The notes under the pieces: model-generated
What the model was told of the DNA's origin: nothing
What the model saw: only the letters and a program-made list of their open reading frames with translations
Databases searched by the model: none
Source of the DNA: an uncultured Methanosarcinales archaeon
Lineage (GTDB): Archaea > Nanobdellota > Nanobdellia > Woesearchaeales > GW2011-AR9
Reading direction: 5' to 3'
DNA length: 64,000 nt
Assembly (NCBI GenBank): GCA_964344285.1
Contig: CAYFMM010000004.1
Location: forward strand, 43,347-107,346
Shown here: positions 4,289 through 55,297 of the stretch, piece by piece
Position numbering within the stretch: position 1 is the stretch's first letter
Layout of the letters: each line of letters begins with the position of its first letter
Program-made: the position numbers and the translations under genes

Positions 4289-4309
4289 ATTACAACCTCT
4301 GCAATGGTG

Positions 4310-4460
4310 GTGAGCAACGCCCTGACGGTTCAAAAAGAAACAACGATTTCTTTTGAACGCCAGAATCAACTTGTTGGTTCTGATGCGAGTCGAGGGACAC
4401 GGTGCAGTAATTAAAAAACAAATTCAATACGCGCCGTAATAGGTCCCGTGCCTTGCTCAC
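4310..4460 (+). ncRNA. candidate structured RNA element, copy A of a two-copy family
   Basis: GC-rich 151-nt island in an AT-rich genome, closed by the 8-bp helix GUGAGCAA/UUGCUCAC. It holds an internal hairpin with loop ACAACGAU, a 12-bp composite helix GGGAC-ACGGUGC/GCGCCGU-GUCCC, and motifs CGCCCUGACG, GCGAGUCGAGG, CAGUAAUU and CCGUGCC shared with 26666-26881. G-U pairs favour the + strand. Confidence 0.4.
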
Positions 4461-4477
4461 TCTCATCAAAATAATTT

Positions 4478-5599
4478 TCATTTTTCTATTTCTACTAATG
4501 TCTTATCTTTGATTTGTACCATTCTAATCGGAATACTTGGCTTTCTAGATTCTCCTACATCAACCTTTCCTGCTAATCCTTCATAACTTTGTAATGCTTG
4601 AATACTTGCTGGAAACTCTTTAACACTATTTCCTCCTGTAACATATGCCTCACCAATTAAATGCACAACATCATACCCCATACCTGCTTCGGCATTACCG
4701 TCTACTGCACTAAAAAGATCATCAAACCTCTTATTTTCTACAGTTCTAGGTATCATATATTCTTGGGCAGCAATATACACACCATCTAATTCTGCAATTA
4801 TTTTATGTTGATTTGTTGCAACAGGGGTATCAGTAAACACAACCATTCCTTCATACTGTTCATTAATCTGTCCAATAATTCTGTCTGGACGTAAATCAAA
4901 AACATATATTGCTTCTGGCTTTTTTTCTACTAATTTCAAAATTTGTGTTCGTGCATCAATTGCAGCACCATCAAAATATTCTAATCCCACGACTTCAATT
5001 CCCTCTTTTACAAAAGCAGGCTCTACAATATCCATAAGTGCATGACCAGCTTCAATGTCTAATGCAAGTAATCCCACACTTCCTACTTCTTGGTTCACGA
5101 AAAAATCAATTGCAATTTTGGCTAAATCTTCTGTTGTCTGAAAATACTGAAACACATTTTCATAATTTTGAAAGTCTGCATACGTAAGTGATGTAACAAC
5201 TGGAATACCTTTTTCTTTTGCTAACGGAATAATTGCTGCAGACGCACCAGACATTGTGGTAAAAATAACATCGGGATTTTGACTCATTATTGCATGAAAC
5301 GCATTTACTGCTTCTTTAGGATTGTTCTTGTTATCCTCTACAATCAACGTAACTTCAATTCCTTGCTCATGTAACTCTTTTGCTGCCTCTTTTGCTCCAA
5401 TCACAACATGAGTGCCATGCACAGCTGCTCCCCCAGAAAGTGTTGCAAGAACACCAATGCGTAATTCTTGTTCCTGCCCTTCCTGACGTACGTCATTTTG
5501 TTGGTTTGTGCACCCTACAATAATTAGGGCCATAACAACCATTAAACTTAATATCTGTAATCTTTTTATTCTCATTTTTTCATTCTCCCAAATATGCAT
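4478..5599 (-). CDS. branched-chain amino acid ABC transporter substrate-binding lipoprotein (second copy)
   Basis: Signal peptide plus lipobox 'LIIVGCTNQ' followed by a periplasmic-binding-protein type I fold (Leu/Ile/Val-binding family). The start is probably the second Met (MRIKRLQ...). Confidence 0.75.
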   Translation of the reverse strand: MHIWENEKMRIKRLQILSLMVVMALIIVGCTNQQNDVRQEGQEQELRIGVLATLSGGAAVHGTHVVIGAKEAAKELHEQGIEVTLIVEDNKNNPKEAVNAFHAIMSQNPDVIFTTMSGASAAIIPLAKEKGIPVVTSLTYADFQNYENVFQYFQTTEDLAKIAIDFFVNQEVGSVGLLALDIEAGHALMDIVEPAFVKEGIEVVGLEYFDGAAIDARTQILKLVEKKPEAIYVFDLRPDRIIGQINEQYEGMVVFTDTPVATNQHKIIAELDGVYIAAQEYMIPRTVENKRFDDLFSAVDGNAEAGMGYDVVHLIGEAYVTGGNSVKEFPASIQALQSYEGLAGKVDVGESRKPSIPIRMVQIKDKTLVEIEK

Positions 5600-9574: not shown

Positions 9575-10672
9575 TTATCTTTCCTTAGTCTCTAAAACAG
9601 AATTTTCAAACACAAAACCAACACGCAAAAATTTCTCTGTAACATAGATGTTGCTCTCTGTGTGCTTACTCAATTTACTCGCCTTAATCTTTGAACCAAC
9701 AAGTAATCCCATATATACCACAAGTTGATCCTCTAAAAACTCGTCAACTACCTCTTCTTGCTCAATTCTCTCACGTAACTGATGTGCAGCCTCCTGACCA
9801 ATTATTTCTGACTTTTTTCCTAGTTCTAACAATGCGTCTGCTCCTAAAATCGTTGGGTTATCAAAACTCATTTTTCCATCAACATCACTAAACATTGCCC
9901 ATAGTACAACTTCTCCTCCATTGCAAGAACTATTACTATACTCTGTCCTAATCATTATTGGCACATCTAAGTTAAGTAAACTTCCCTTAGCAGCTTTTGC
10001 AACTCGCTGTGCAATTTCTTTTTCTAACAAACTCTGTGAAACATTCACTACTCCCTTGATTTGTTGTAATTCTCCTCTCTTAGTCAAATTAATTAGTGCA
10101 CATTTATATCTTAATTCTTCACAAAATTCCCCTAAAGAACCATATTCTGTAATGTGAAACCTAGGTGTTACCTCAACAACAACTTCTCCTTGTCCTTTTG
10201 GAAAATAGCCTCGGCGAATTACCTTTAATTCTACTTTTTCTACAAACCTTTTCAAATGTGGGAATAATACATTTTGAATATAATCTACTGATGCCTGCCA
10301 TTTCCCACAAGTTCCTCCCGTAACCTGCAATGTAACTTTTCCAGGAGCAAACATACATACAGGGAGCACTGCTTGTAAAAATAGTGAAATACTTCCAGCA
10401 GTGCCAATATCAAAATTAAACTTTCCTCGCTTAATCTTTCCTGGGATAAAATGAACGTACTCACTTCCCAATGCAACCTCGTTTGTCTTTGCCCTGCAAA
10501 TCTCTTTTAATGCCTTAATTGCCGTAAGGTGCTGCGCCTTTAATCCTGGTTTTTCTCTGCCTGCTCGAATATTTCGGATTTTACATTCCTCGCCTGTTAA
10601 TGCAGAAAGAGCTAAAGCAGTTCTCACTAAGGCTCCTCCTCCCTCACCATAATTACCATCAATTTCTATCAT
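9575..10672 (-). CDS. rtcA: RNA 3'-terminal phosphate cyclase RtcA
   Basis: 'GEGGGALVRTALALSALTG', 'HLTAIKAL' and 'DIGTAGSISLFLQAVLP' match the RtcA family. 365 aa. Confidence 0.85.
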   Translation of the reverse strand: MIEIDGNYGEGGGALVRTALALSALTGEECKIRNIRAGREKPGLKAQHLTAIKALKEICRAKTNEVALGSEYVHFIPGKIKRGKFNFDIGTAGSISLFLQAVLPVCMFAPGKVTLQVTGGTCGKWQASVDYIQNVLFPHLKRFVEKVELKVIRRGYFPKGQGEVVVEVTPRFHITEYGSLGEFCEELRYKCALINLTKRGELQQIKGVVNVSQSLLEKEIAQRVAKAAKGSLLNLDVPIMIRTEYSNSSCNGGEVVLWAMFSDVDGKMSFDNPTILGADALLELGKKSEIIGQEAAHQLRERIEQEEVVDEFLEDQLVVYMGLLVGSKIKASKLSKHTESNIYVTEKFLRVGFVFENSVLETKER

Positions 10673-10724
10673 AGTTTTTGATTTTGGTCAGAATGTTATT
10701 AAAGTTTTGTTTCCTTAAGGTAAT

Positions 10725-11111
10725 ATGAAACAATGGCCAAATACTAAACTCTTGTCTTTGATCTGTGCAGGACTCCTTGCTGCGGGTGCTACGCTAGCGC
10801 ATTTATCGCGACTGTCATATGATGTCTCTAGGGACTTTAATGGTCAGATTGATAACTGCTATGTGCAACGTTTTCAAGAAGGTTCTGGGGCTAAAGATGA
10901 TCCAGTGTATGAAGAAATAACTGTGACATGTCCAGATAAAACAATGATTTTTTATGATGATAAACCATTTGGTTCTTTAGATGAAATAAAAACTGCAACA
11001 ACATCAAACGCCACATACGATAGAAGGACTGGAAGGTCAATAATGCAAAAACAACACGAACTCTTTCAAGCTTACTCAAACACAATTAACTCAAAATTAG
11101 GTTTACAATAA
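10725..11111 (+). CDS. small secreted hypothetical protein
   Basis: Signal peptide 'LLSLICAGLLAAGATLA'. No known domain. Confidence 0.45.
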   Translation: MKQWPNTKLLSLICAGLLAAGATLAHLSRLSYDVSRDFNGQIDNCYVQRFQEGSGAKDDPVYEEITVTCPDKTMIFYDDKPFGSLDEIKTATTSNATYDRRTGRSIMQKQHELFQAYSNTINSKLGLQ

Positions 11112-21274: not shown

Positions 21275-21345
21275 GTTCTGTAAAGAACTTTGTTTTTGTT
21301 ATTTTAAAATAGTGCTTGTGTGTAATCACTCAAGAATACTAAAAA

Positions 21346-21355
21346 TAACGAAAGC
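21346..21355 (+). promoter_or_regulatory. candidate TATA box (TTTAAATATA) upstream of the surface-protein gene
   Basis: AT-rich TATA-like element about 90 nt upstream of the 21447 start. The long leader carries a strong SD. Confidence 0.3.
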
Positions 21356-21446
21356 TTTAAATATAAAGGGGGGTTTTGGACGAGTAAATAGAGGAAAACC
21401 TCTATCATACTCAAAAAACGAATCATAAGATTTGGAGGAAGATAAA

Positions 21447-25769: not shown

Positions 25770-26594
25770 TTAATTTCCAATTACTTTATACCAACTATAA
25801 AGTAACCTATTTGCAGCCTTTATAATCTCTTTGCCCTCTCCAGAAACTTTAATACAAGAACCAGACAACTCGACCTTTGCTTCTCCTTTCCCAACTAATT
25901 CAATTACTGGCATTCCTTGAGTATCTTCACAACTCAAAATCTTACGCTCTTCACATCCTACGGCCTCTTTAACACATGCTCCTTGGGAGTTTCTTCCAAT
26001 TCCCTGACCGACATTAGCACTAATTTCTCCCATTGCTACAACATAATTTCCATCTGCCATGCTTGGATCAATTGCTACATAGACTGTATCTCCTTGATTA
26101 AAAGAACTATTAATACTTCCCATGATTGGTACATCCTCAACTTGTGCAGGATTGTAATGCAAGGGGATTCTTTTCACATTACTCCCTACTTGAATATCTG
26201 TCCACCATAAATTATCTGCGAAAACTGAACTAAATCCGTTGTAAATAATACCTTCTTCCTCAGAAAGCTCGCCTTCATAATTTAGTGCATGTAACGCCTC
26301 AATATCCAATAACTCTGGTTCTACATTGTTATTATTGTATACATAAGATCCGATAAATACTAACGCAAAAATACCTATAATAACTGCGATTATAATCAAT
26401 AAATTTTTACTATCAGCAGATTGTTTATTCTCAGAATTGTCTTTCTTTTCAATAGCAACATCAGATTCTACTTTAGCGTCCTCTTTTTCATCCTGCTTCT
26501 TCTTAGACTGCTTAATCTCTTCAATCTCCTTAATAGAAGGAGCTACTTCCATTTCTTGTACTTCAATCTTTTCTGTGCTCAGATTATCGTCCAT
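25770..26594 (-). CDS. membrane-anchored hypothetical protein (acidic N-term, single TM, Cys-containing C-domain)
   Basis: TM 'LLIIIAVIIGIFALVFIGSYV'. The C-terminal domain has several Cys. Confidence 0.45.
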   Translation of the reverse strand: MDDNLSTEKIEVQEMEVAPSIKEIEEIKQSKKKQDEKEDAKVESDVAIEKKDNSENKQSADSKNLLIIIAVIIGIFALVFIGSYVYNNNNVEPELLDIEALHALNYEGELSEEEGIIYNGFSSVFADNLWWTDIQVGSNVKRIPLHYNPAQVEDVPIMGSINSSFNQGDTVYVAIDPSMADGNYVVAMGEISANVGQGIGRNSQGACVKEAVGCEERKILSCEDTQGMPVIELVGKGEAKVELSGSCIKVSGEGKEIIKAANRLLYSWYKVIGN

Positions 26595-26665
26595 TTGAAC
26601 TTAGCAAGTAAATCAATTTAAAAGCTTTATGGAGAACTAGGCTCTGTCCAGAAAGGAGGGTTTTT

Positions 26666-26881
26666 GTATACTAGCGCCCTGACGCATAAAAACCAACAAC
26701 GATTGGTTTTTGGCGCAAGAATAAAGTCTTCTGCTTTATTCTTTGCGTAGTCGAGGCGCATGATGCACTAATTGACGATAAGATAAATATGCATCATCCA
26801 CAATAAAGACAAAGTGCTTTATTGGGATCCAAACAAAGTAGTTTCTTTGTTCTGGATGATGGGCGCCGTGCCCTAGTATAC
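26666..26881 (+). ncRNA. candidate structured RNA element, copy B of the two-copy family
   Basis: Terminal helix GUAUACUAG/CUAGUAUAC. Hairpin AAAAACC-[AACAACGAUU]-GGUUUUU. Shares motifs CGCCCUGACG, GCGUAGUCGAGG, CACUAAUU, GCGCCGU and CCGUGCC with copy A. Carries a roughly 85-nt insertion relative to A. The T-tract UUUUU comes 2 nt after the 3' helix. Confidence 0.4.
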
Positions 26882-27001
26882 ATTTTTACTCCTTTCCGGA
26901 TGAAGCCGGAGAATTAAGATGATTGTAATAAAGAAATTTGGTCACATCTCTCTTTTTTTTGGTCATAACCTTTAAATAAGGATATTTGTCTTAAAGTAAG
27001 G

Positions 27002-27505
27002 ATGGAACCAGATTACAAGAGCTTAGGTCAATGTCTTTACCAATTGGCTGAGGCTAAAAGAATTACTTCTCCCGGTGCAACTCTAGATATGCTAAAAGAA
27101 ATGATCCCTGGGATGAATGATCCTTCAGATCTTGCTTTCAACCATTTTGGCATGCTTGAAACCATGGCTACTGAATTCACGCAAAGTCTGCCAGACCTCA
27201 CATCTCCTATTCTTGTTACATCTTTAAACAAATCAGGAAAAATCTATGCACCTAATGCGACTCCTCTTCTAGGTGATGTAACTTCTCAGATCGCAGAAGG
27301 TTATTTTCAAGGAAGGGATATATCGGCCCAACAAGCTCAACTAAGGGATTTAGAACAAGCATATCTAAAACAAACTTTGCCTAGATCAGAGCAACCATTA
27401 AACGAGCTAAATGGTTGTTTGTTAGAATTAATGGGACAAGGAAAAAACCCTGATGGCTTGATACAAAGAATAGACCAACGTTGCCTATTGTACTTGTCTA
27501 ATTAG
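27002..27505 (+). CDS. hypothetical protein
   Basis: 167-aa ORF, no family. Confidence 0.4.
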   Translation: MEPDYKSLGQCLYQLAEAKRITSPGATLDMLKEMIPGMNDPSDLAFNHFGMLETMATEFTQSLPDLTSPILVTSLNKSGKIYAPNATPLLGDVTSQIAEGYFQGRDISAQQAQLRDLEQAYLKQTLPRSEQPLNELNGCLLELMGQGKNPDGLIQRIDQRCLLYLSN

Positions 27506-28343
27506 CTTTCTCCAACAACTTCTTTACAGGCTCTAGATTTTGCTCCCGCAGTGAATCTTCGCCTTTCCCGCCAACATGATCTGTAATAACTGCTGTTTTA
27601 TGCTTTTGCAATTCTTGCTTTACTTCATTGCTACACACGTCCAGGGCAATCCCTCTAAATCTATCTGCATGGTGCAACAATGCTTTTTCTTCAACAACTT
27701 CTTCTCTTGACGCATTAACAAAAAACACATTATCTTTCATAAAGCTAAATGCCTTTTCATTAATCAACTCTTTAGTATACTTATTAAGAGGAACATGGAT
27801 GCTTACAACATCTGCTTGCTGCAGTACTTCTTCAAAAGACTTCATCTCAACTTTTAACTCCTCAAGAACTTCTGGCTTTTGCTCAATAACATCAAAAGCA
27901 ACAACCTTAGCATCAAAACCAAGTAACTTTTTTGCCACCATTTTTCCAATCATACCAAAACCAATAATTCCTACTGTTTTTCCTTTGATTTCAGCTGGAG
28001 GACTAGATTCTTTCATTACTGCAAGCATCAAATATAATGTATGCTCTGCTGCACTATTTGCGTTTAAGCCTGGCATATGAATTAATTCAATATCTTTTGT
28101 TTTTAATTCTTCCACATCAATATTGTCAATTCCAGTACTACAACTTACAACATATTTTAATCCAGACAACTTATCTAAATCTACCTTGCGTAAGGGAGTA
28201 AATGTCCGTAGCACAATAGCTTCAAATTCAGCTAGGCTCTTAGAACTCGCAAACTCTTCATTTGTCATTTGTGTGACTGTTGAATTTTCCTCTAACAATT
28301 TTTGTGCATCAGGATGTAAATTTCCAATAAGTAAAACTTTCAT
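27498..28343 (-). CDS. D-isomer-specific 2-hydroxyacid dehydrogenase family protein (PGDH-like)
   Basis: NAD-binding 'GKTVGIIGFGMIGKMVAKKLLGFDAKVVAFD' and catalytic-domain arrangement. 281 aa (short form). Confidence 0.75.
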   Translation of the reverse strand: MKVLLIGNLHPDAQKLLEENSTVTQMTNEEFASSKSLAEFEAIVLRTFTPLRKVDLDKLSGLKYVVSCSTGIDNIDVEELKTKDIELIHMPGLNANSAAEHTLYLMLAVMKESSPPAEIKGKTVGIIGFGMIGKMVAKKLLGFDAKVVAFDVIEQKPEVLEELKVEMKSFEEVLQQADVVSIHVPLNKYTKELINEKAFSFMKDNVFFVNASREEVVEEKALLHHADRFRGIALDVCSNEVKQELQKHKTAVITDHVGGKGEDSLREQNLEPVKKLLEKAN

Positions 28344-28401
28344 GTAATTTTAATCAAGATTATCGTTTATAAAAGTAATGAAATAAACAGTTAGATTAAG
28401 A

Positions 28402-28773
28402 TTATTCTTGGTTAGATACGTATTTAGTAAATTCTTTTGGAGGCATAACTTTAGATATCATTGCCCTAACAGCAAGCTCATCAACAAGTTCAGAACTAAT
28501 AATCTCTTTTCCTTTAGCATACGCATACGTTACTTCAACTGTTACAGAATTACCAACATATCCTTGCTTTGCATAAACATAAAGCACATCAATTTCATCA
28601 ATTTCAGGAAAATGCTTAAGTGTAGTCTCAATTTTCTTCTCATCAGACATGCCCTCATCTAAAAGGTGAAAATAAGGGTAATTGCCTTTAACACCTAATT
28701 TATCAAGCTCTTTTTTAATCAATTTAATATCATCATAGTACTTTCTAGAACTTGCAACAAAAACCGATTTCAT
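28402..28773 (-). CDS. nucleoside 2-deoxyribosyltransferase-like (flavodoxin-fold) protein
   Basis: 'MKSVFVASSRKYY...' N-terminus and overall pattern resemble the Nuc_deoxyrib_tr-like superfamily. The assignment is weak. Confidence 0.35.
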   Translation of the reverse strand: MKSVFVASSRKYYDDIKLIKKELDKLGVKGNYPYFHLLDEGMSDEKKIETTLKHFPEIDEIDVLYVYAKQGYVGNSVTVEVTYAYAKGKEIISSELVDELAVRAMISKVMPPKEFTKYVSNQE

Positions 28774-28814
28774 ATTTTTCTTAAGCTAAACCTCTTTTAT
28801 AAAAGTAGTGGAAA

Positions 28815-29848
28815 TCAAAATTTTAAGACTTTTCTTTTTCTCTTAGGGCTAAAGATTCTTAAAATGGTCTCTTGATGCGTTTCAAATTCTTCTTTGCCAA
28901 ATTCTAACTCTTTAAGTCCTCTGTCTTGGAACTCTTCTTGAGCTACGTTATAGGCCCAAGTGAAATATTCATATGCTTCAATCAACTCTCCAACTTCTCT
29001 TGGATCTACTGTGTGTCCTTTACTCTCAAAAAACTTCAACCTTTTTACAACATTTCGGGGAGCTACGGTTAAATCATCTATGGTCTGTTCTAAATCCTTT
29101 TCTGCTGAGCTTCTAATAAGTGTTGTCATTTGATCAAGTAATCCATATTGCATCATTCTCAATTGACCAATCTTAAAAGATTCAACTTTTCTATCTGGAT
29201 CGTAGAAAGAGGTAACTCCATTCCCTCTTAATTCAAAATGCCGCCTTTCTTCTTTCTGGACTGAATTCTTCCCCTCTACTGTTGCTCTCCTATGTGCTCT
29301 AAATTTTCCATTCAACCATCTCTTTAAACTTCCTCCTTCTTCGGATCTGAATTTGTTTAAGATGTATTCAACAGCCCTTTGATGCGTTCCTTCATTTCCA
29401 TAGAGGATTGTTGTTTCATATAGTCTATTTGGAAAGGCAGTTGAGCCTTGGTATGAAGTACAAATTGGGTCTCCAATGGCCCATATTTCTGATCTTTCTA
29501 CCTCATCCATGGAACTAATTCTCTTTGCAACCTCTCTCCATTGGTCATGGTCTTTTTTATCTTCTGGTATTAAAAAAACTTCAATTCTAGAAGTACGATA
29601 CGGTCCTTTTTCTAGGCGACTATCACTCCCTGTAGTAATGATTGCTCCTGTGGGAATATCGCCTATTGCTCTAATGCGTGTCGCAATTTCTCTTTGAAAT
29701 GCAAGATTATTTGATTGTAAGAAATGATAGTACTCTTTAGGGGGTAATCTCTGGGAGAAACATGAAATGGACTCTCCACATATACTGGGATTGTATTACT
29801 GCCTCTTGGGATTACTGTTCTTCTTAGGTGGCTTAAATCTGATCGCAT
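28815..29848 (-). pseudogene. roughly 340-codon gene interrupted by a frameshift (sequencing error, pseudogene or recoding)
   Basis: The ORF-track CDS 28815-29510 stays open on the minus strand for about 95 further codons upstream, to a stop at 29796-29798, with no ATG/GTG/TTG start. A 61-aa ORF (29663-29848) in another frame begins at an ATG and overlaps this open region. Confidence 0.5.
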
Positions 29849-29894
29849 TTTTTATTCACGATGCGCTTTTTATATAAGCTTAATCTAGAAAAAA

Positions 29895-29987
29895 GCCCCT
29901 GGAGGGATTTGAACCCTCGGTCTTTCGCTTATTGCCCGTTATTTATCATAACTCGAGGCGAACGCTCTACCGCTAAGCTACAGAGGC
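29895..29987 (-). tRNA. intron-containing tRNA (anticodon CAU, CGU or CGA depending on the splice junction)
   Basis: Acceptor GCCUCUG/CAGGGGC with discriminator U. D-arm GCUU-AGCGGUA-GAGC. Anticodon stem UUCGC/GCGAA interrupted by about 21-22 nt. Variable loop AGACC. T-arm GAGGG-UUCAAAU-CCCUC. No encoded CCA. Confidence 0.8.
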
Positions 29988-30080
29988 AGTAATGTAAGCT
30001 ATCAAGCAAACTCGTTTGCGCAGATGCACAACGAACACCAAACCGTAATTGGTCGCAAATATCACTAAATCACAAGGGAA

Positions 30081-30245
30081 CTATTCAATTTGCTCTAACA
30101 ACTCTTTCTTTGTCAAAAATTTCTTTTGACACGCAAAACATATGGTATGCTGCTTTGAAGAACCTTCTTTTTTTACAACAGTCCCCTTTAGCTTTCCTAA
30201 AAACAACTCTTTGATCTCGTTTTTACAAATACTGCATTTTGCCAT
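30081..30245 (-). CDS. small CxxC...CxxC zinc-ribbon protein (54 aa)
   Basis: My translation gives MAKCSICKNEIKELFLGKLKGTVVKKEGSSKQHTICFACQKKFLTKKELLEQIE*. Below the ORF-track size cut-off. Confidence 0.35.
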   Translation of the reverse strand: MAKCSICKNEIKELFLGKLKGTVVKKEGSSKQHTICFACQKKFLTKKELLEQIE

Positions 30246-30476
30246 ATACTTTCATATTCTACCTTATTTTTAAAAGTATTGGATTGCAATTTCATAGAGA
30301 AGGAACTTTCTCTTATTCGTGGTATATGTAAGATTAAGGTACTAACTCAGAAACTAAAAGATGAAATGAGGGACGGATGGGGCAACAATTAATACTACTG
30401 GTTGTAGCAAAATTTAAATAAAATGTCTTTTCCTAATTAGTATGCAATTCTTTTTCCAAAAAAACATTATCTTTTT

Positions 30477-31886
30477 TTGTATGACACTTTCCAATTTGAG
30501 GTGAGAAAAGTGTTAGACTACAAAAATGATCCTTTACTGTTGGATAAGAAAACATTCAACGACCTAATTGGAGAAAAGAATGAAAACATTTTATTTCTCG
30601 ATAAAGAGTCTAAAATATTAAATCTTTTTTCTGCTTTTGTAAAAAAAAGTGATTTTATTAAAGATCATAAACTTAATCAACCATTACAAAAGACTGTTTA
30701 TGTCAAGGTAAGTAAAGAACTAATTAGGATTTTGAGAAATCGATGCAACAAAACAAACGATATTCAAAAGTTAATTGAAACTTATACCAAACGAAGAACT
30801 AACTGCAGAGACGCTGTTAACAGATGGTTTGTGTCAGGTATTTTTCCCTTCATTCTCCTTAGGATTTTATCTAAAAATAATACTGAATTTTCAGGTTGGA
30901 TTTCTGAAATAAGATATTTTACAGATTTTCTTGGTAAATCTAAACTCTATTCTCCGAAGACTTTGTCTGAATTGTTAAGTCATAAGCTTGTTTACTTTGT
31001 TGGGTGTTCAGTAGGAGATGGACATATTGATAAAAACGGTAAAAGGTGGGTATTGGTTGATGGAAGCTCTGATCCAAAAAGATTAATTCTTTCAGGAGAA
31101 TTTGTATCAAATTTAAGTAATCTGTTGAGTGATTATATTGATGCATTTAAGATTGTAAAACACAAAACGAAATATGAGTTAAAAGTGAATAATAAATTAT
31201 TTTGTAGGTTTCTAAATTTCTTTTTTGGGCTTCCTTATGGGTCAAAGAAAGAGAAAATATTGAGGGTTCCATTAATCCTAAAATATTCTGGTTCAAACTT
31301 AGAAAAATACTTTTGGAGGGGATGTTTCGATACTGATGGGAGTGCAGTTCGCTCCATTGGTTTTTGTTCTTCTGATAAGAACTTAATTAGTCAGTGTGAT
31401 GATTACCTTAAATCATTGGGAATAAAGGTAAATTTGGGTAAGAAAAACATTAGAATTCCAGTTCCGAGTCTTAAAGAATGGACTTCTATTGGCTTTGCTC
31501 ATCCTAGAAAACAAATAGAATTCTTAACGACACTTAAGAAAGGAGCGAAATTTAAATTACTAAAAATAAAGGAAAAAGACAATGTGCCTTATGCGTTACG
31601 TAGAATTCATAGATTATTACAAGTTGATAGGAACGGATATAGGGTGAGGATTAATTCGTCTGCTTTGAAAGAACAGGAAATACCTGTTCAAAACGTCAAT
31701 GATATCATGAAAAAACTGTTTAACTGTGAGTTTAGACAAGCATCAAATAATCTTTATTACTTTAAATCTAAAAAAGTATATAGCTATTTACGGAGTATTT
31801 TTATATATGAACCTGCTTGGCAAGCAATAAATGATGATGAAGAGGAGCAATTCCTCTGTAATTGGAATGATGTGTGGAGAAAATGA
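30477..31886 (+). CDS. LAGLIDADG-domain protein with about 170-aa N-terminal extension
   Basis: Two LAGLIDADG motifs, 'LVYFVGCSVGDGHI' and 'FWRGCFDTDGSA'. The stop overlaps the ABCE1 start (ATGA). Confidence 0.65.
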   Translation: MYDTFQFEVRKVLDYKNDPLLLDKKTFNDLIGEKNENILFLDKESKILNLFSAFVKKSDFIKDHKLNQPLQKTVYVKVSKELIRILRNRCNKTNDIQKLIETYTKRRTNCRDAVNRWFVSGIFPFILLRILSKNNTEFSGWISEIRYFTDFLGKSKLYSPKTLSELLSHKLVYFVGCSVGDGHIDKNGKRWVLVDGSSDPKRLILSGEFVSNLSNLLSDYIDAFKIVKHKTKYELKVNNKLFCRFLNFFFGLPYGSKKEKILRVPLILKYSGSNLEKYFWRGCFDTDGSAVRSIGFCSSDKNLISQCDDYLKSLGIKVNLGKKNIRIPVPSLKEWTSIGFAHPRKQIEFLTTLKKGAKFKLLKIKEKDNVPYALRRIHRLLQVDRNGYRVRINSSALKEQEIPVQNVNDIMKKLFNCEFRQASNNLYYFKSKKVYSYLRSIFIYEPAWQAINDDEEEQFLCNWNDVWRK

Positions 31887-33652
31887 GAAAGAGAATAGCA
31901 GTTATAGATAGGGATAAGTGTCGACCTACAGCCTGTGGAAATTATTTATGTGCTAAATTATGTCCTGTTAATCGAACGGGGGCTGATTGTATTTTCCCTG
32001 GAGATGATTCTGGCAAAAAAGCTAGGGTTGACGAAATTCTTTGTACTTCGTGTGGGATTTGTGTTAATCGTTGCCCTTATGGCGCAATTACAATTATCAA
32101 CCTTCCAGAATCTCTTAACAAAGCCCCAGTTCATCGTTATGGGCAAAACATGTTTGAGCTCTATTCTTTACCTTCAGTTGTTCCAGGACAAGTAACTGGT
32201 ATTTTAGGTCCCAATGGGATTGGGAAATCCACTGCTCTAAAAATCATGGGAAATCTTCTCAAACCTAACTTGGGAAAATGGGATAACCCTCCAGAGTTCA
32301 AAGAAGTTATTAAATATTTCAAAGGTTCAGAAACACAAAAATTCTTAGAACGACTACAAAAAAATGAAGTCAGTCTATCTTACAAACCACAACAAGTGGA
32401 CTTAATCCCTAAACAATTTAGCGGAAAAGTTTCAGAGCTACTCGCAAAACTTGCAAACAATGACTTAGAAAAAATTCAACAACTCGCGCAAAAATTACAA
32501 TTAACTCATTTTTTAGACAATGATATCTCTTCCATCTCTGGTGGAGAACTCCAACGTGTTGCAATTGCTGCAACTGTCTTAAAAGATGCAAACTTATTTC
32601 TTTTTGACGAACCAACTTCCTATCTAGATATTAAACAAAGAATTCAAACATCAAACTTCTTACGCTCACTGGCAAAAGACAATACCTCTGTAATGATAAT
32701 TGAGCACGACTTGGTAATCTTAGATTACATGACTGATGCACTAAACATCATGTACGGAACAGAAAACGTCTTTGGTGTAGTTTCTGGGATAAAATCAAAC
32801 AGAGAAGGAATTAATGCTTTCTTAGAAGGCTACCTCAGAGAAGAAAACATTCGTTTTAGATCTCATGCAATTAAATTTCAAGGCTCAGACTCAAGCACAG
32901 CTCTTCCTCAACAACTAATTTCATGGCAAAAATTAGAAAAGAAGCTTGGTAATTTCAACTTACAAGCAGAATCTGGTTCTTTGTACAAAAATGAAATCAT
33001 TGGGGTTCTTGGAGAAAACGGAATTGGAAAAACATCTTTTATCAAAATGCTTGCAGGTGTCTTTGATCCTGACTCTGGAGAAATAGACACAAAAATAAAA
33101 GTAGCTCTCAAACCTCAATATCTTGAATCAGAATCAGAACTAACAGTATTAGAATTTCTCACAGAAGCGGTTGCAAAATACTCTAATCAATTAATCAAGC
33201 CACTAGACTTAGAAAAACTCTTCTCATCAAAATTATCTCAACTTTCAGGCGGACAGCTACAACGTGTAGCAATCGCACATTGCCTTGCACAAGATGCAGA
33301 ATTGTTCTTACTAGACGAGCCATCTGCATACTTGGATGTAGAACAACGTCTAATTGTTTCAAAAGTTATCAAAAATGTTGCAAATGAACGTGATGTAACT
33401 GTTCTTGTTGTAGATCACGACTTAATGTTTTTGGATTATCTTTCTAGTAGACTCATTGTGTTTTCTGGACAACCTGCAAAACAAGGATTACTTCAAGGTC
33501 CATTTTCAAAAGAGGAGGGTATGAATAAATTCCTGCAAGAGATAGGAATTACTCTTAGAAGGGATATGCACTCTCATCGCCCAAGAATTAACAAGCCAGG
33601 ATCCGTTAAAGACAGGGAGCAAAAAGAAAGTGGGAGATGGTATTATAATTGA
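31883..33652 (+). CDS. abcE1: ABCE1 (RNase L inhibitor homologue) ribosome-recycling ATPase
   Basis: N-terminal double 4Fe-4S domain (CRPTACGNYLCAKLCP...CTSCGICVNRCP). Two ABC cassettes, each with Walker A, signature LSGGELQR / LSGGQLQR and Walker B. Start set at MRKRIAVID. Confidence 0.9.
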   Translation: MRKRIAVIDRDKCRPTACGNYLCAKLCPVNRTGADCIFPGDDSGKKARVDEILCTSCGICVNRCPYGAITIINLPESLNKAPVHRYGQNMFELYSLPSVVPGQVTGILGPNGIGKSTALKIMGNLLKPNLGKWDNPPEFKEVIKYFKGSETQKFLERLQKNEVSLSYKPQQVDLIPKQFSGKVSELLAKLANNDLEKIQQLAQKLQLTHFLDNDISSISGGELQRVAIAATVLKDANLFLFDEPTSYLDIKQRIQTSNFLRSLAKDNTSVMIIEHDLVILDYMTDALNIMYGTENVFGVVSGIKSNREGINAFLEGYLREENIRFRSHAIKFQGSDSSTALPQQLISWQKLEKKLGNFNLQAESGSLYKNEIIGVLGENGIGKTSFIKMLAGVFDPDSGEIDTKIKVALKPQYLESESELTVLEFLTEAVAKYSNQLIKPLDLEKLFSSKLSQLSGGQLQRVAIAHCLAQDAELFLLDEPSAYLDVEQRLIVSKVIKNVANERDVTVLVVDHDLMFLDYLSSRLIVFSGQPAKQGLLQGPFSKEEGMNKFLQEIGITLRRDMHSHRPRINKPGSVKDREQKESGRWYYN

Positions 33653-37495: not shown

Positions 37496-37840
37496 TTGGA
37501 CTTCCAAAGTATACGTCAGTATACCATGAGCAAAAAAGAGGCAAATCTAACCTGTACTACTAAAATTTCTAAACTAAATCTAGTTAGGATTCAAAAGCTC
37601 AAAAGCTCAGGTTATGAACCAAATGACTATATTTTACAACAAGCTTTACAACTCTTAGAAAAACATAACAAGCCTCTTGGATTTGTCTCAACAAAACAAA
37701 AAATAACTTCTTCTACCAAAATTTCTGCAAAAACTCTCTCTCAAATTCAAAAATTAAAACCATCTGGATATGAACCCAATGACCTAATCATTCACAACGC
37801 GCTTTCTTTACTTGAAAAACAAAGAGGTAAGAAAAAATGA
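37496..37840 (+). CDS. small protein with internal tandem about 40-aa repeat (KLKxSGYEPNDxIxxALxLLEK x2)
   Basis: The repeats are 'KISKLNLVRIQKLKSSGYEPNDYILQQALQLLEK' and 'KISAKTLSQIQKLKPSGYEPNDLIIHNALSLLEK'. The stop overlaps the start of the giant gene (ATGA). Confidence 0.45.
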   Translation: MDFQSIRQYTMSKKEANLTCTTKISKLNLVRIQKLKSSGYEPNDYILQQALQLLEKHNKPLGFVSTKQKITSSTKISAKTLSQIQKLKPSGYEPNDLIIHNALSLLEKQRGKKK

Positions 37841-40800
37841 AACGAAACACCTCTGGATTATTTAATAGGCCTAAAAAATTAGCAATAGCATTTATTCTAT
37901 TTGTACTTCTCTTATTTACATTCTTTAATTTAGAACAGCCAGATAACAACGCAAAAGAAATAATTGAGCTAAAAACAGCAACAATTCTTGACACAGGTGG
38001 AAAAGAAGTTCATGATTACTCAAAAGAACTCCTGCAAAAAGATAATTCTTGGATTACATTTTATGCAAATCAAACACTTCAAATAGAATTTACAAAAGAA
38101 CTAGACAAAACTAAAGATATCAAATTTTATACAAAAAATAATCTTTTGCCTAATGCAACTTTAGAACTTTATGATCCTGATACAAACAACCTAATTACAA
38201 CCTTGCCGATAACAGCTAAAGAAAAATATCATAAGTTATTCTTACAAGATCTTACAAAAAATCAATCTACATTTAATGTAAAATTAAATTCTTTAAATCC
38301 AGATGACTTTATTGAAATTGATCACATTATTGACCCCTCAATTAGTGCGTGTGGAACACTTACAGATAATACAGAACCTAATATTTTAACACAAGATGTA
38401 ACAGACACAGACACATGTTTTGAATTAAGTGCACATCATATTATTCTTGATTGTCAAGGTTACAACATTACCTATGGTACAACTTCAGCAACACAACAAT
38501 ATGGGGTAAATACCTTAGGCTGGGATAATTTTACTGCTATAAACTGTGAGATCCATAATGGGGGTACGGGCCAACAAAACCATGGGATTCAAATTGACAC
38601 AGGGTCCATAGGTTCAAGAGTAATTAATTCAACCATTACAGTTACGGGATCATCTTCAAGGGCAATTAATATTCTTGGAAGTAACGATTCACAGATTATT
38701 AACTCTTCTTTGTATAACACAGGATCTTTTGGTGTAAGTGTCTACTTAACAAGCTCTTTAAACAACACTATTTTTAATTCAAGCTTATACTCTAGAAGCG
38801 CGTCAGGTCAAGCAATTTATTTAAGTGCATCTGACAATAACTTTCTTTTAAATAGTACTTTAGTAACAACATCTACGGTCAATCCAATCCAACTCTTAAA
38901 CAGTGATTATAATACGATTGATAGGGTTAATGTTTCCTCTGGTGGTTACGGTTTAACCATCTCTTCAGCTTATTATAATAACATCACTCGCTCTAGAATT
39001 ACCTCGTTTTATTCAACAATTTTTGCTAATGCTGATGGTGATTTTAATCTGTTTGAAAATAATACTCTAATCTCAACTGGAACAAATCAATTTTATTCTT
39101 CGGTAAGTTTATCGTCAGCTGATAATAATATTTTTTATAACAACCTTATGAACCAGACAAGAACTTCTGGGGGCCCTGTAGTGTACTTAGATAACAACGC
39201 TGATAATAACACATTTGAAAAAAATATACTTGATATGGCAAGGACATCTTTTACAGCAGATGGGTATAGTTCAGCTATATTTGGTAATAGAATAAGTGGG
39301 GTAAACGTCACTCATAATATTTTTTTAAGCGATACTGACCAACAAAGTTTCTATTTTGGAGGGATTGGAGCTTCATTTTATGATCATTATTTTTTCAATA
39401 ATACACATAACAATGACCCCATTTATTACATTGGTCCAAAAGATCATCGAACTGTCTTTAATCATACCACTGTAAGGCTACTTTGGATTGCAAAGGATAA
39501 TTTTACTGTAAATAATGTTTCTGTAAATCACACTGATGGAATGCGTGTAGCTTATGCAAATAACGTAGTGATCAATGATTCCTTTTTTGTTCCTCAAAAA
39601 AGAGCTGGCCTTGCAGCACTACATCTTCGTGGAGCAGTAAACACAACAGTTAACAACACTAGGCTTACAACTTCTCAAACCACTTCTGAGGGAATTTATC
39701 TTGAAGATACGTTTAATAACACTATTTATAATGTTACTATTCAAACCTCAGGATCTACTGGGAGGGGAATTTATTTTGACGATGCAAATAACAACACAAT
39801 CTCAAACTCAAGAATTACTACTACTTCCACTACCGCAGATGGGTTAGTTATTTTTAATGGAGATGGCAATTTAATTCAATATATCAACATTTCAACGGGC
39901 TCTGCTGATGGGGTTGAACTAACTACTGCAACAAGTAATAATGTCTCTTATTGTAGGGTAAGTTCCTCTAACGCAGCGTATAATACAAATAGTAATTCAA
40001 ATCAAAATAATTATTTTTCACATAATTATTTAGAATCCTCTGGCTCAAATTATAATGCTGTTTCTTTATCAGCGGCTGATTTTAACACTCTTCATGCAAA
40101 TGTAATTAATCAGAGTTCAACATCTGGAAATAATCCAGTTCTTTTGATTAACACTGCACAAAATAATACATTCACATACAATAAAATATACGGTGCTCGA
40201 AATACATTTTCTGAGACAGCGGGTTCTGGAGTTAGGATTTCTGGTTCTCCCTATAACAATTTCTCTCATAACATTATTAACACAACTCTGAATTTAGGAA
40301 GAGAAAACTTAGGCCTTTATGTAGTTGCAGCTTTTGATACACATCAGCATCATTATTTTTTCAATAACACACATAACAATGATCCGATCTATTATTTTGG
40401 ACCTCAAGATTCAAGCTCTTCATTCTCACACTCAAACCCCAAACAGCTCTATGTTGCTAAAGATGGGTTTACATTAAAAAATGTCACATTGAATCAAGTA
40501 GATGGAATTCGAGTTTTATTTGCTGATGATATTTCAATTCAGAGCTCTTTAGTTAATATCACAAATCAGACTAATATTGAGGCAATTTATTTAGATAATG
40601 CAAATAATGTAACAATTCAAAATACCACTACACTAACTAACAAGGGAGGAGCGTTTAGTGTTTATTTTGATACTACAGAAAATAGTACTATTCGAAATTC
40701 AAATTTTGAATCAAAAAGCGCAGGTTCACTGTATTTTGTATCATCAGAAAGTAATCAAGTCTTAAACTCTACAATTTATTCCTTTGGAGCCTCAGTCTAT

Positions 40801-43800
40801 TTTTCCAATGCTCATAAAAATAATGTTTTATTCTCAAACATTACAAACATTGGCTCATTTGGGATTCAAACAATTTCTCCTTCAAACAATAACACTTTTG
40901 CGTATAACCGAATTATTAGCTCTGGCTCAGCAATAAGCTTGAATGAAGGTGGTAAATCACTCACTAATGTCTCTTATAACTATTTAGAAGGAAATAGCTC
41001 TGTTTCAGATACACTTGCAATAAATGCACCAGATAACGTTACTATTGCCTATAACATTATTAATAATTCTGGGGGTGGTCCAGCAGTAGCAGAAATTTTT
41101 AACTCTGATAATATTACATTTATTTACAATAATCTTTCTTCTTCAAGGGCAACATATATCTCAACTGGGATGCTTTATTTATCCTCTTCAAAGAATGGAT
41201 ATTTTGCCCATAACAGGTTAATTGGAGAAACTCAAACTAAACTAACTATTGCTTTTAATGCAGAAAATAACAGCTTTAACAACAACTACTTTGGTATATC
41301 AAATGGCTCATCCAATGCACGATCAATAGAAGCAGCAAGTGGAGGTAATAATTATTCTACGCAACTATTTACAAATAACATCTTTGTAGATTTTGGAATT
41401 GATGTAGATGGATTTAACTTTACGCTTTTGAACTCTACATTTAGGTCCCTTGACAACACAGTAGATGTTTTCCCTGGATATTTGAATTTTAATGGATCTA
41501 TGGGGTATGAAATCAATGAAGATAACCTCTACCTCAAAAATAACGTAAGTTCCTTTGGAACAGAAAAAACAGATTTTATTTTAGATTTCAATAAAACCAT
41601 GAATGTTTCTTTTTACGGCCAAGATTGTTTAGGGTATAATATTTATCACAACAATTCGTTCATTAATGATTATACTACTGCCCTTACTACAAATATTGTA
41701 GCAACACAAGCTGATGCAGGCGGAGGATCTTGTGGCAACAATGTCTGTTCAAACATTCAATGTAATGCTGGGACTCTCTCCTTTACTGTACCATTTTGGA
41801 GTGCATTTGCAATTCAAAGCATTGGTTTGGTAGATGGAGCAGCGCCAGCAGTAACATTCCTAAACCCAGTTAATAATTCAAATTTCTCAACACAGATTCA
41901 GGCTTTTAATGCATCTGTAATTGATGAAACTGCGCTAGATAGTGTTATCTTTATGTTTCCAAACAACCAAACCCCATTTAACAAAACTGCAGTAAATAAC
42001 TCTGGTAATTGGAATACAAATGTTGACATGAACACATTAACCGAAGGGTTACATATGAGTTTTGTCTTTGCAAATGATACTTCTAATAACGTAAACCAAG
42101 TAGAAAATGTATCATTCTATGTAGATAGGACCCCTCCAATTATAAACATCTTAAACCCTGCAATTAATACATCAAATTCAACCGTAGGAATTCGCTTTAA
42201 TGTAACTGACTTACATCGCTTCCTAAATTGTTCACTCTACATCAACAACACTTTAAACACTACCAATACATTCACACCAAATGGCACAAATGTATATCTT
42301 GTATCGCAAGCCCTTAACGACGCGTATTACAACGCAACTGTGACTTGTATTGACCCATCTGGTAATTTGGCAAGTAATTCTTCTATTACCATCTTAGTAG
42401 ATACACTTGTTCCAGCAGTCACCCTTACTAATCCTACTAACAGTTCAAACTTTAGTTCTGGTTTACAAGATGTCAACGCAACTATTTTTGAAGCAAACCC
42501 TAAGACAATCTTATTTAGGTTAGACAATAGCACTGGAAGAGATTTTAATCTTTCTCTAAACAACATCTCTGGCAATTGGAATAACAACCTAAACATCTCA
42601 GCACTTGTAGAAGGAACGCACTCTGCGTATATTTATGCTTTAGACCCAGCAGGAAACTTAAATGACACAGAAAACATAAATTTCATTGTAGATAGAACTC
42701 CGCCTGTTGTAAATAATCAAAATGTATCATACCTTACAGCAGACACAACTCCGACTCTTTGGGTAAATTTCACTGACACACTTTCTGCAGTAGCCAACTG
42801 TAGTCTCTTTATGGATGGTGCTATACAAGACTATACTGTAATCCCGCCCGATACCAACACGCCTCTCACACCAACAACAGCTTTAACTGAAGGAGCATAT
42901 CTTACAAACTTTACTTGTGTAGACTACTCAAACAATTCGGCAACATCATCAACAATAACTGTAACTATAGACTTATTTCCTCTTTTTGTAAATATCATTA
43001 GTCCTGCAAATAACTCTAATCTCTCAACGGAAGTGCAGTCTTTTAATGCTAGTATTCAAGAGGCCAACCCTGACACAATTATTTTTGTTTATGATAATGC
43101 TACGGGAGTTGACTTTAACAAAACTCCCACAAACCGTTCAGGTAATTGGAATGTAAGTCTTAACATTTCGACACTTACACAAGGAAGACATTTGTTTAGA
43201 GTTTTTGCAAATGATTCTGCAGGAAACACAGACTATGCTCAAAATATCTCCTTTACTGTAGACCGAGACGCACCAAATGTGACTCTATTAAACACTTCTT
43301 TGACTACAAGTTCCCCTCTTCCTTCAGTCTGGATAAACACAACTGATAACTTTTCTATTGTGACAAACTGTTCTCTTTTTATTGCAGGAACCCTACATGA
43401 TACTTCAACAGTTATTAACACAACCCCGACAATGCTTACAGCCTCAACGCCTTTAGGAGATGGGAATTATCTAACAAATGTAACTTGTACTGATTACTCT
43501 GGAAATCAAGGAAACTCTACTACGATTACTCTAACAGTAAACCTAGCTCCTCTTACTGTCGTTATTACAAACCCTGCAAACAATTCAAACCTCAGTTCGG
43601 GTAACCAAGCTTTTAATGCCTCTGTACTTGATACAAATGTTGACACGGCCATTTTCCAATTTACCAATGCAACTGGAAATAATTTTAACATCACTGCAAC
43701 AAATGTTTCTGGCAATTGGAATACATTACTAAATGTAGACTCTTTTGTTCAAGGTCAACATCAAATGCGAGTCTTTGCAAATGATACCTTAGCAAATACC

Positions 43801-52146: not shown

Positions 52147-52635
52147 TTAATCGTGGAATAACTTCACATATTCAGGTAATGTTGGTAAAAATTTCTCAGA
52201 AGACTCTTGCATCTTTTTTTTCAATTCACCTACTTTAAACCACTGCACTTCCTCGACTTCATCTTCTTGTATTACAAAGTCCTTTGCTTCTTTATCAATC
52301 TGCAATGTGAACCATTGTGTAAAATGGTGAAATTCTCCTGTTGTCTCTGTTTTTGGACCTATAACAAATGCAACATCTTCTAAACCAATCTCTTCTTTTG
52401 TTTCCTTTATGATATTTTGTTCATAACTCTCTCCTTGCTCAACAGTTCCTGCAACAGCAGGTCCCCACATATTAGGATGTTTTTTCTTATTCCTATGTCT
52501 TCTTGCTAATAGAACTTCTCCTTGAGAATTTGTAATCCATAATGCAGAAACACGGTAAATGTCTTCTGTTGTAGTTTCTGTAATATCTTTCACTCCAATC
52601 TCCTTGTCGCTTTGATCTACAATAATTATATTCAT
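52147..52635 (-). CDS. Nudix hydrolase
   Basis: Nudix box 'GTVEQGESYEQNIIKETKEEIGL' (Gx5Ex7REuxEExGu). Confidence 0.75.
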   Translation of the reverse strand: MNIIIVDQSDKEIGVKDITETTTEDIYRVSALWITNSQGEVLLARRHRNKKKHPNMWGPAVAGTVEQGESYEQNIIKETKEEIGLEDVAFVIGPKTETTGEFHHFTQWFTLQIDKEAKDFVIQEDEVEEVQWFKVGELKKKMQESSEKFLPTLPEYVKLFHD

Positions 52636-52692
52636 GTATCTCTTTTCTCCACCAATACCTTTAAATATCTATCCATGCTCCTCAAGACTTAA

Positions 52693-53997: not shown

Positions 53998-54014
53998 ATT
54001 CTTCATTCCATCTT

Positions 54015-54047
54015 GGGTATAATACCCCGATGCTTTGCATCGGTTAC
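54015..54047 (+). terminator. conserved 3'-end motif UAAUACCCCG + hairpin GAUGC-UUUG-GCAUC (copy 1)
   Basis: Found 18 nt after the stop of the 52693-53997 gene. Shares 'GGGUWUAAUACYCCG-stem-UYUG-stem-GRUUAC' with 62050-62083, with compensatory stem changes. Confidence 0.45.
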
Positions 54048-54070
54048 TTTTCCTAATTCAAGATTGACTA

Positions 54071-54104
54071 AAATACCCCGGAGCTCTGCTCCGATGGGGT
54101 TTTT
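54071..54104 (+). terminator. conserved 3'-end motif AAUACCCCG + hairpin GGAGC-UCUG-GCUCC, followed by UUUUUAUUU (copy 2)
   Basis: Tandem with copy 1. Same AAUACCCCG lead-in and UCUG loop. A T-tract follows. Confidence 0.45.
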
Positions 54105-54177
54105 ATTTCTGTTAACTCTCACAATAAATACCAAAAATTTATAAATATGGTTTAAAACCATAAAGCTATGGTTTTAA

Positions 54178-54762: not shown

Positions 54763-55297
54763 AAAAATTACACAAGCAGAACAAAATGTTACATCTTACC
54801 TACAGGATGGTCTTATGAAAAAAATTGAATATAATCAAGATATCCTTCATACATATATCACAAACTCTCAGGAAAGTCTTAGAGTTGCAGATTTAATCTC
54901 TGAAAATAAAGCTTCAAACCTATGGGTAATTGTAGTCTCTTATTACTCTATGTATTACATTAGCAATGCTGTCCTTTACAAACTTGGGTATAAGATTGGA
55001 GATAAAATCAGTCATAAAATCACCAGTGATTCGCTTATTGTTTTTGTACGTGATAAGCTACTGCAGTCTCTTTTAGAAAGTTTTGAGGAAATTAAAGAAG
55101 AAGCTTTAGAATTAGTTTCAAATAAAACGGATCAACTTATTATGAATTTTGAACAAGAACGTGCAAAGAGGGGGAAGTTTCAATATCAAATGAATGAGGA
55201 AATAAAAGTAGCAAAGGCAACAACATCGCTACAACGAGCAAAAGAATTTGTCAATGAAATGAAAGATGTACTTGATTCACTTCAGGAGCGTAGATAA
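54749..55297 (+). CDS. HEPN domain protein (toxin-like partner of MNT)
   Basis: All-helical 182-aa protein overlapping the MNT gene by 14 nt. Architecture is typical of HEPN-MNT pairs. No clear Rx4-6H motif was seen, so this is assigned by context. Confidence 0.5.
   Translation: MLDSKKITQAEQNVTSYLQDGLMKKIEYNQDILHTYITNSQESLRVADLISENKASNLWVIVVSYYSMYYISNAVLYKLGYKIGDKISHKITSDSLIVFVRDKLLQSLLESFEEIKEEALELVSNKTDQLIMNFEQERAKRGKFQYQMNEEIKVAKATTSLQRAKEFVNEMKDVLDSLQERR

Follow-up and report, generated by a model that had tools for sequence, protein, structure and literature searches.

What kind of element is the strongly folded stretch of 216 nt, hereafter called copy B, which lies between two divergent genes of an uncultured archaeon and has a counterpart, hereafter copy A, within the same segment of the genome? 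The whole stretch of DNA that was analysed (64,000 nt, hereafter the window) is archaeal, with ~35% G+C distributed evenly throughout, and carries among others the genes for an intron-bearing tRNA, ABCE1, geranylgeranyl reductase, GluRS and RtcA, its closest proteins being those of Candidatus Woesearchaeota. It also contains an ORF of 2760 aa with internal repeats of ~570 and ~1140 nt (37837-46119, plus strand), which probably encodes a giant surface protein, as well as tandem paralogous MacB/FtsX permease genes with 78% identity over 237 nt and a spacing of 1228 nt (55297-57742, plus strand). To our knowledge, almost no non-coding RNAs or small mobile elements have been described in DPANN archaea. 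The initial annotation saw in copy B the arrangement of an independently transcribed small RNA (sRNA) of the plus strand and considered a mobile element less likely, an order of preference that the evidence presented below has led us to reverse.

Structural homology of the two copies

The ends of the element were obtained with a covariance model constructed from copy A and from copy B minus its insert. The model matches both ends of copy B (140.6 bits) exactly where the initial annotation had placed them, retrieves copy A with 174.5 bits and, with its filters off, finds no third copy in the 64 kb window. Their arrangement as direct repeats 22 kb apart is as previously reported, and their common architecture and motifs are equally borne out. 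The blocks present in both are CGCCCTGACG (26675-84 in B, 4318-27 in A), AACAACGATT, AGTCGAGG (26749-56 in B, 4388-95 in A), TGCAnTAATT and CCGTGCC, among which the junction blocks CGCCCTGACG, AGTCGAGG and CCGTGCC, together with the hairpin loop AACAACGATT, are 100% identical. The features of copy B and its immediate surroundings are collected in table 1.

Table 1. Position and properties of the features of copy B, its flanks and copy A (window coordinates)
Feature	Position	Strand	Basis or remark
TATA box, TTTAAAAG on plus, CTTTTAAA on minus	26617-26624		-27 box of a leaderless minus-strand gene (ATG 26594)
Outer helix, 5' arm (UCCAGAAAGGAG)	26647-26658	+	pairs with 26889-26900 at 11/12 positions
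P1, 5' arm (GUAUACUAG), closing helix	26666-26674	+	9 bp; 6/9 pairs differ from A on both sides
J1 invariant block CGCCCUGACG	26675-26684	+	CUGAC pairs with GUCG of J2, forming P2
Hairpin H1, invariant loop and closing pairs AACAACGAUU	26685-26713	+	fold, A/B alignment
Hairpin H2, 13 bp, one bulged U	26714-26747	+	5' strand motif CGCnAGAAU common to A
J2 invariant block AGUCGAGG	26749-26756	+	A/B alignment
P3 5' strand GGCGC and P4 hairpin (AUGAUGC/24-nt A-rich loop/GCAUCAU)	26755-26797	+
Bulge GAUGG, P3 3' strand GCGCC, J3 block CCGUGCC (26866-72)	26858-26872	+	A/B alignment
P1, 3' arm (CUAGUAUAC)	26873-26881	+	fold, covariance model
T5 tract, candidate archaeal oligo-T terminator	26883-26887	+	sequence
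Outer helix, 3' arm (CUCCUUUCCGGA)	26889-26900	+	pairs with 26647-58
Copy A, 153-nt core without insert	4309-4461	+	covariance model; in the 189-nt spacer of a minus-strand operon

The core of ~150 nt is a multi-helix junction composed of P1, P2, H1, H2 and the P3-P4 arm, with invariant junction nucleotides between the helices. P2 encloses the hairpins H1 and H2, the former of which has the invariant loop CAACGA, whereas the 5' half of J1 engages in irregular pairing with J3. P3 (5 bp) is continuous with P4 (7 bp), the latter being capped by an A-rich loop of 24-25 nt and followed by a bulge of 5 nt (AAUAG in A, GAUGG in B), at which the additional sequence of copy B is inserted. All 38 modelled pairs are standard in both copies, and 13 of them have changed on both sides: six in the region of the closing helix, three in H1 and its base, two in P3 and two in P4. 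When the 3' partner was moved by 1-3 columns as a control, pairing dropped to 34-46% with 0-2 double-sided changes, a contrast that is inflated by having derived the structure from the same two sequences but nonetheless has a clear effect size.

The closing helix illustrates this pattern best, for its arms are GTATACTAG/CTAGTATAC in copy B and GGTGAGCAA/TTGCTCACT in copy A, different in sequence (3/9 bases identical between GTATACTAG and GGTGAGCAA) yet complementary in both; the earlier statement that the terminal repeats are maintained by complementarity only is therefore correct. The fold of copy B has a calculated energy of -82.3 kcal/mol (z = -8.0) and that of copy A of -52.7 kcal/mol (z = -4.4), so that both rank with the most strongly structured intergenic sequences of the window. 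An outer helix of 12 bp surrounds copy B and, once included, brings the fold to -101.4 kcal/mol (z = -9.4), with the T5 tract located in an internal loop of this outer helix. With its co-varying helices and invariant junctions, copy B is a true structural homologue of copy A.

Other strong intergenic folds of the window are found at 54005-54105 (z = -6.3), where two G+C-rich hairpins and a T-run follow the gene 52693-53997, and at 21295-21444 (z = -5.2). Neither is related in sequence to copies A and B.

Copy A in the liv operon

Copy A lies antisense within a minus-strand operon that has the gene order SBP1-livH-livM-livG-SBP2-(copy A)-livF, where SBP indicates a substrate-binding protein. 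It occupies 153 nt of the 189-nt gap between the second binding-protein gene (stop codon 4478-4480) and livF (ATG 4288). The latter gene has its own Shine-Dalgarno sequence (GAGGT) and no TATA box, and there is no plus-strand TATA box upstream of copy A. Judging from its location inside the operon, copy A is almost certainly part of the minus-strand transcript.

The same gene order is present in four relatives (P0003, P0004, P0009 and P0016), in which SBP2 and livF are separated by 0-3 nt or overlap by up to 14 nt. Because the two genes abut or overlap in all four, we interpret copy A as an insertion, with the proviso that the relatives are distant (43-60% protein identity); the insertion could be ancient, and its absence elsewhere could reflect poor sampling of the lineage. 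A relative (L301) shows synteny on both sides of the copy A site.

A minus-strand ORF of 63 codons (4290-4481) spans the whole of copy A, overlaps the stop codon of the binding-protein gene in an ATGA and ends 1 nt before the ATG of livF. It might keep translational coupling across the insertion, or else it could be due to chance; it is not conserved in copy B.

Copy B between divergent promoters

The genomic context of copy B is unrelated to that of copy A, lying between divergent promoters instead of antisense in an operon. The surrounding gap measures 407 nt, from ATG 26594 on the minus strand to ATG 27002 on the plus strand. In most genes of the window, the ATG is preceded by a TATA box (YTTTTAWAWA) whose centre lies ~27 nt away, from which it follows that their mRNAs are leaderless. 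The gene starting at 27002 has its own -27 box at 26971-78, and copy B, being situated between this box and that at 26617-24, is thus outside both flanking mRNAs. Hence, the previous description of copy B as lying upstream of the 27002 gene in a divergent gap holds for the gap, not for any role as the leader of this gene; the position expected of a riboswitch or 5' leader was not found here, copy B being outside the 5' untranslated regions of both flanking leaderless genes.

This position also bears on the possibility that the element acts in cis within minus-strand mRNA, either as a stabiliser or processing site, similarly to REP sequences after bacterial binding-protein genes, or as a regulatory leader. 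Copy A would suit such a role, for it directly follows a substrate-binding-protein gene in a transcript almost certainly made on the minus strand, precedes a gene that has a Shine-Dalgarno sequence only and no TATA box, and folds as stably on this strand. However, copy B is placed upstream of the TATA box of its minus-strand gene and so outside both flanking leaderless transcripts, the G.U pairs described below favour the plus strand, and the two downstream genes share no common function. An mRNA element of this kind would explain copy A and not copy B, and we regard it as decidedly unlikely.

The proteins adjacent to copy B are poorly informative. Pfam, PHROGs and NCBIfam gave no useful result for the neighbouring proteins, the two that flank copy B matching no family; no homologue was found for the 27002 protein and a single one for the 25770-26594 protein. 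The latter homologue is in a relative (L177, GCA_964460195.1), 340 nt (9662-10000) from ABCE1 and with only a tRNA gene in between, whereas 5.3 kb separate the equivalent genes in the window (26595-31873). Copy B sits at the edge of a stretch of ~3.3 kb that is absent from GCA_964460195.1.

The interval 26595-31873 contains an orphan gene of 167 aa, a 2-hydroxyacid dehydrogenase, two unknown genes, a tRNA gene and a LAGLIDADG ORF. The tRNA gene (29894-29987, minus strand) has a 26-nt intron in the anticodon loop, with an anticodon left unnamed by ARAGORN, and L177 has a tRNA gene at the corresponding place (~9880-9960). The free-standing ORF of 469 aa (30477-31886, plus strand) has a LAGLIDADG_3 domain, overlaps ABCE1 (31874-33652) by 13 nt and is absent from L177.

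The direct orientation of copies A and B could also suggest that the 22-kb segment separating them had integrated there, leaving the copies as att-like remnants, a scenario that the initial annotation had raised in the form of identical cores flanking a 4.3-26.9 kb segment of variable presence in related genomes. We consider this extremely improbable. The common blocks are only 7-10 nt long and the helices co-vary instead of being identical; gene synteny is shared with L301 on both sides of copy A and with L177 within the interval; there is no integrase in the window, no partial tRNA duplicate, and G+C is even across it.

Strand and transcription

Divergent pairs of leaderless genes that are 51-57 nt apart use a single palindromic TATA box (such pairs are at 1319-1371, 10672-10725 and 52635-52693), which points to frequent use of bidirectional promoters in this genome. 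The box at 26617-24 possibly works in both directions as well. It predicts a plus-strand start at ~26647, 52 nt from ATG 26594, a distance within the spacing range of the other divergent pairs, and this start coincides with the first base of the outer helix of copy B. The TATA-like box that the initial annotation had noted upstream of copy B does exist on the plus strand but is also the -27 box of the minus-strand gene. Likewise, the TTTTT following the closing helix is present, but begins 1 nt after the helix instead of 2; on general grounds of archaeal termination, we presume this T5 to be a candidate terminator. Copy B is probably transcribed on the plus strand from the shared TATA box to the T5, which would produce an RNA of ~240 nt.

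The functional strand cannot be assigned by fold energy, which showed no difference between plus and minus: both strands of either copy fold equally stably and the energies of the consensus fold are the same. Other features do distinguish the strands. In copy A, three G.U pairs (in P1, H2 and P4) would become A.C mismatches if read on the minus strand; unpaired bases are A-rich on the plus strand; and T-runs follow on the plus strand 1 nt after copy B and ~15-20 nt after copy A, the latter T-run falling within the 3' coding end of the adjacent gene. From these sequence features, the plus strand appears to be about twice as likely as the minus to be the functional one.

The same features may be read in favour of paralogous, independently transcribed sRNA genes of the plus strand with a function in the host, in which the fold would provide a scaffold for protein binding or target pairing while the large A-rich loop of P4 and the optional insert would be variable modules. 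The conserved fold with invariant junctions, the G.U pairs, the A-rich unpaired bases, the downstream T-runs and the plausible bidirectional TATA box with its correct spacing are all consistent with this proposal, which we consider possible though doubtful. It meets difficulties at copy A, which is an insertion antisense within an operon, lacks a plus-strand TATA box and has its T-run in the coding 3' end of its neighbour; moreover, the equal energies of the consensus fold on the two strands lend it no help, and no homologue was found in related genomes or sequence collections, an unusual situation for a functional RNA with such conservation of its junctions. The arrangement of an independent sRNA gene, as originally described, is therefore plausible at copy B, with its bidirectional TATA box and T5, but missing at copy A. 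Overall, the sRNA model is a possible explanation for copy B, which it explains well, and explains copy A poorly.

The insert of copy B and breaks in public contigs

From the A/B alignment and the covariance model, the sequence of copy B that is missing from copy A measures 60 nt (26798-26857) and forms two hairpins, the arms of the first (AATAAAG/CTTTATT) being the same as those of H2 in copy B. The initial annotation had set the insert at ~85 nt (26745-26855), thereby including the hairpin 26760-26797; this is P4, homologous to that of copy A and not part of the insert. Together with 6 nt of its left and 4 nt of its right flank, the insert constitutes an imperfect palindrome of ~70 nt (26792-26861, z = -5.3) that ends in a perfect 9-bp terminal inverted repeat, CATCATCCA/TGGATGATG.

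Further copies of these sequences can be deduced from Logan assemblies, in which two runs of one project contain this strain at 0 mismatches. Logan contigs derive from a de Bruijn graph with k=31, in which each 31-mer occurs once and contigs below 150 bp are dropped (PMC12424806). A repeat extending from a to b with unique flanks would thus cause the flanking contigs to end at a+29 and to start at b-29. In ERR2281800 one contig spans 4337-26823, its left neighbour ending at 4358 and its right neighbour starting at 26828, and a contig also ends at 4337 in ERR2281801. By the k=31 logic, these contig ends suggest that exact repeats of 4329-4366 (38 nt) and 26794-26857 (64 nt) are present elsewhere in the sample.

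The first of these repeats corresponds to H1 and the start of H2 of copy A, and it begins right after 4328, a position near J1 at which, as at few others there, A and B differ. The second has a right end identical to that of the insert, which had been set independently by the A/B comparison. Strain variation is an unlikely cause of the breaks, given that the 22.5 kb between the copies are unbroken. We infer that the sample holds at least one further A-like copy and at least one further palindromic module, in addition to the two copies that can be read directly, on the strength of assembly-graph logic. More generally, the points at which public k=31 contigs end can expose hidden copies of repeats.

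Searches for known families and relatives

At gathering scores, the only match of Rfam 15 in the window is a tRNA. With the threshold relaxed to E <= 10, copies A and B gave chance matches of 14-20 bits, to be compared with gathering scores of 39-200; the families without a match include hammerhead, twister, twister-sister, pistol, hatchet, HDV-like and hairpin ribozymes, riboswitches, SRP, RNase P, 5S and archaeal sRNAs. Pattern scans did not identify any member of the family either. The combination of J1, J2 and P4 loop had 0 matches in GTDB genomes (species representatives) and JGI metagenomes, and that of J2 and P4 loop had 44 in JGI metagenomes, all coding or due to chance and none with J1. 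J1, H1 loop and J2 together gave at least 117 matches in GTDB, those listed being GC-rich bacterial sequences matched by chance, with archaeal matches possibly among the others. In IMG/VR, scans that included exact pieces of A and B found chance matches or none, and BLAST against phage and plasmid collections found nothing. The covariance model had no match in ~100 kb of related Woesearchaeota DNA, retrieved through homologues of neighbouring proteins, in which ~3 copies would be expected at the density of 2 copies per 64 kb.

Several candidates were additionally compared with the two copies and discarded. AUGAUG, as in C/D box or K-turn RNAs, is found in copy B only, and no ACA follows copy A as in H/ACA RNAs; neither strand has the staggered 3-nt bulges of a bulge-helix-bulge intron. 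The two end hairpins are mutually unrelated, which does not correspond to IS200/IS605 ends, and the R'/R'' core sites of an integron attC are absent, as are the conserved regions of 5S rRNA and RNase P. Six-frame translations revealed no small ORF common to A and B, as would be the case for a type I toxin-antitoxin repeat. No reverse transcriptase lies downstream as for retron non-coding RNA, the neighbours being livF and a binding protein for copy A and two proteins of no family for copy B.

A multi-helix junction with invariant unpaired nucleotides, freely varying helices, an optional inserted arm and copies scattered in unrelated contexts would also be compatible with a new catalytic or enzyme-partnered RNA, for instance a self-cleaving ribozyme outside the present classes or a retron-like template RNA, whose multi-copy intergenic spread would resemble that of hammerhead or twister ribozymes. 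This we judge very unlikely, considering that no Rfam ribozyme or other family was matched at E <= 10, that no reverse transcriptase is nearby, and that A and B, inspected by eye, do not share core motifs: neither CUGAnGA and GAAA of the hammerhead, nor UGAC/GUC of the hairpin ribozyme, to which a resemblance exists in copy A only.

A proposed structure-dependent interspersed element

The reading we favour, albeit tentatively, is that copies A and B belong to a lineage-restricted, structure-dependent interspersed element gained by insertion. It is based on the conserved fold with invariant junctions, the unrelated contexts of the two copies, the insertion that splits a coupled gene pair, the nested repeated module, the predicted extra copies and the absence from related genomes. 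A mobile element, initially considered less likely, is favoured by the comparison of the copy A site with four relatives, the contig breaks and the lack of counterparts in related genomes. A narrow lineage distribution is typical of selfish repeat families. Our confidence remains limited since the element has no conserved ends, no consistent target duplications and no visible enzyme: no transposase, integrase, HUH enzyme or reverse transcriptase was detected in the 64 kb window with Pfam, PHROGs and NCBIfam. Regarding target duplications, copy A has no flanking direct repeat, while TTTTT is present on both sides of copy B (26661-65 and 26883-87); the second of these runs mirrors the first and may have arisen with it as a target duplication of 5 bp, or else belong to the internal loop.

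If the favoured reading is right, the fold and its junction bases would be the recognition target of machinery, encoded elsewhere, that copies or moves the element. Active lineages would maintain the structure through compensatory changes, like structure-dependent bacterial repeats, and copy B would have acquired a nested palindromic module of ~60-70 nt that is itself repeated elsewhere. Compensatory changes are indeed expected if active lineages are selected for the fold, as in REPINs or SINEs, and a host function would not be required at each locus. The invariant junctions and compensatory changes would fit a host-functional RNA equally.

A related, more speculative idea, which we hold to be unlikely, is that the element represents an undescribed class of structure-dependent RNA from a lineage of Woesearchaeota, with the junction core as the active site or as the recognition site for a partner. 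A new small ribozyme would be one possibility, an RNA or ssDNA substrate of a new mobilising enzyme another; the element would accept nested modules and spread with neither terminal repeats nor target duplications. The weight of all these considerations is limited by having two copies from one genome of a poorly sampled lineage. Yet either main outcome would be significant: if mobile, the element would follow a route that leaves no terminal repeats or duplications, which would suggest that a single strand is recognised in its folded form; if a host RNA, it would constitute a new archaeal RNA family.

Comparison with known systems

Multi-copy families of structured sRNAs resemble the present element: their paralogous members measure ~150-250 nt, combine a constant scaffold with loops that vary and may, as in the candidate arrangement of copy B, have a promoter and an oligo-T terminator of their own. 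They differ in that copy A is without a promoter and the A/B family is without a counterpart in related genomes.

Archaeal MITEs, such as the SM elements of Sulfolobus, are non-autonomous, small, intergenic, multi-copy and lineage-specific, as the present element would be. They are defined, however, by target duplications and by terminal inverted repeats that match a parent IS, whereas copies A and B show no such repeats and no consistent target duplication, and no parent IS is present in the window; the divergent arms of P1 are not the sequence-conserved terminal inverted repeats of a MITE.

A resemblance in size (100-170 nt) and strength of fold is seen with the structured repeats ERIC/IRU, Correia and RPE of enterobacteria, Neisseria and Rickettsia, respectively, which are inserted between operon genes and transcribed with them. 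The size variants of ERIC that arise from internal insertions at fixed sites recall the 60-nt insert of copy B (PMC2759123, PMC3184786). Copies within each of these families have ends of conserved sequence, and those of Correia generate a TA duplication; in copies A and B, by contrast, the terminal helix is kept by complementarity only and the internal unpaired blocks are the most conserved parts.

Finally, the REP/BIME/REPIN sequences of bacteria, mobilised by the Y1/HUH transposase RAYT, share with A and B the condition of short, interspersed and species-restricted intergenic repeats of mosaic, modular constitution, the fold of which is kept by compensatory changes. REPs often follow binding-protein genes in transporter operons and are co-transcribed with them, as is almost certainly the case for copy A. 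REPs are described as single hairpins of 20-40 nt with a GTAG or CGTC tag (PMC3733652). The core studied here is instead a multi-helix junction of ~150 nt with other invariant blocks and in an archaeal host; no GTAG or CGTC tag is found at its 5' foot, the GACG before H1 on the plus strand (CGTC after it on the minus) being on the wrong side, and within the 64 kb window no gene for RAYT, the Y1 transposase, is detected by Pfam. Although it belongs to no described family, the element can be placed broadly among small structured interspersed repeats, within which it stands out for its unusual features.
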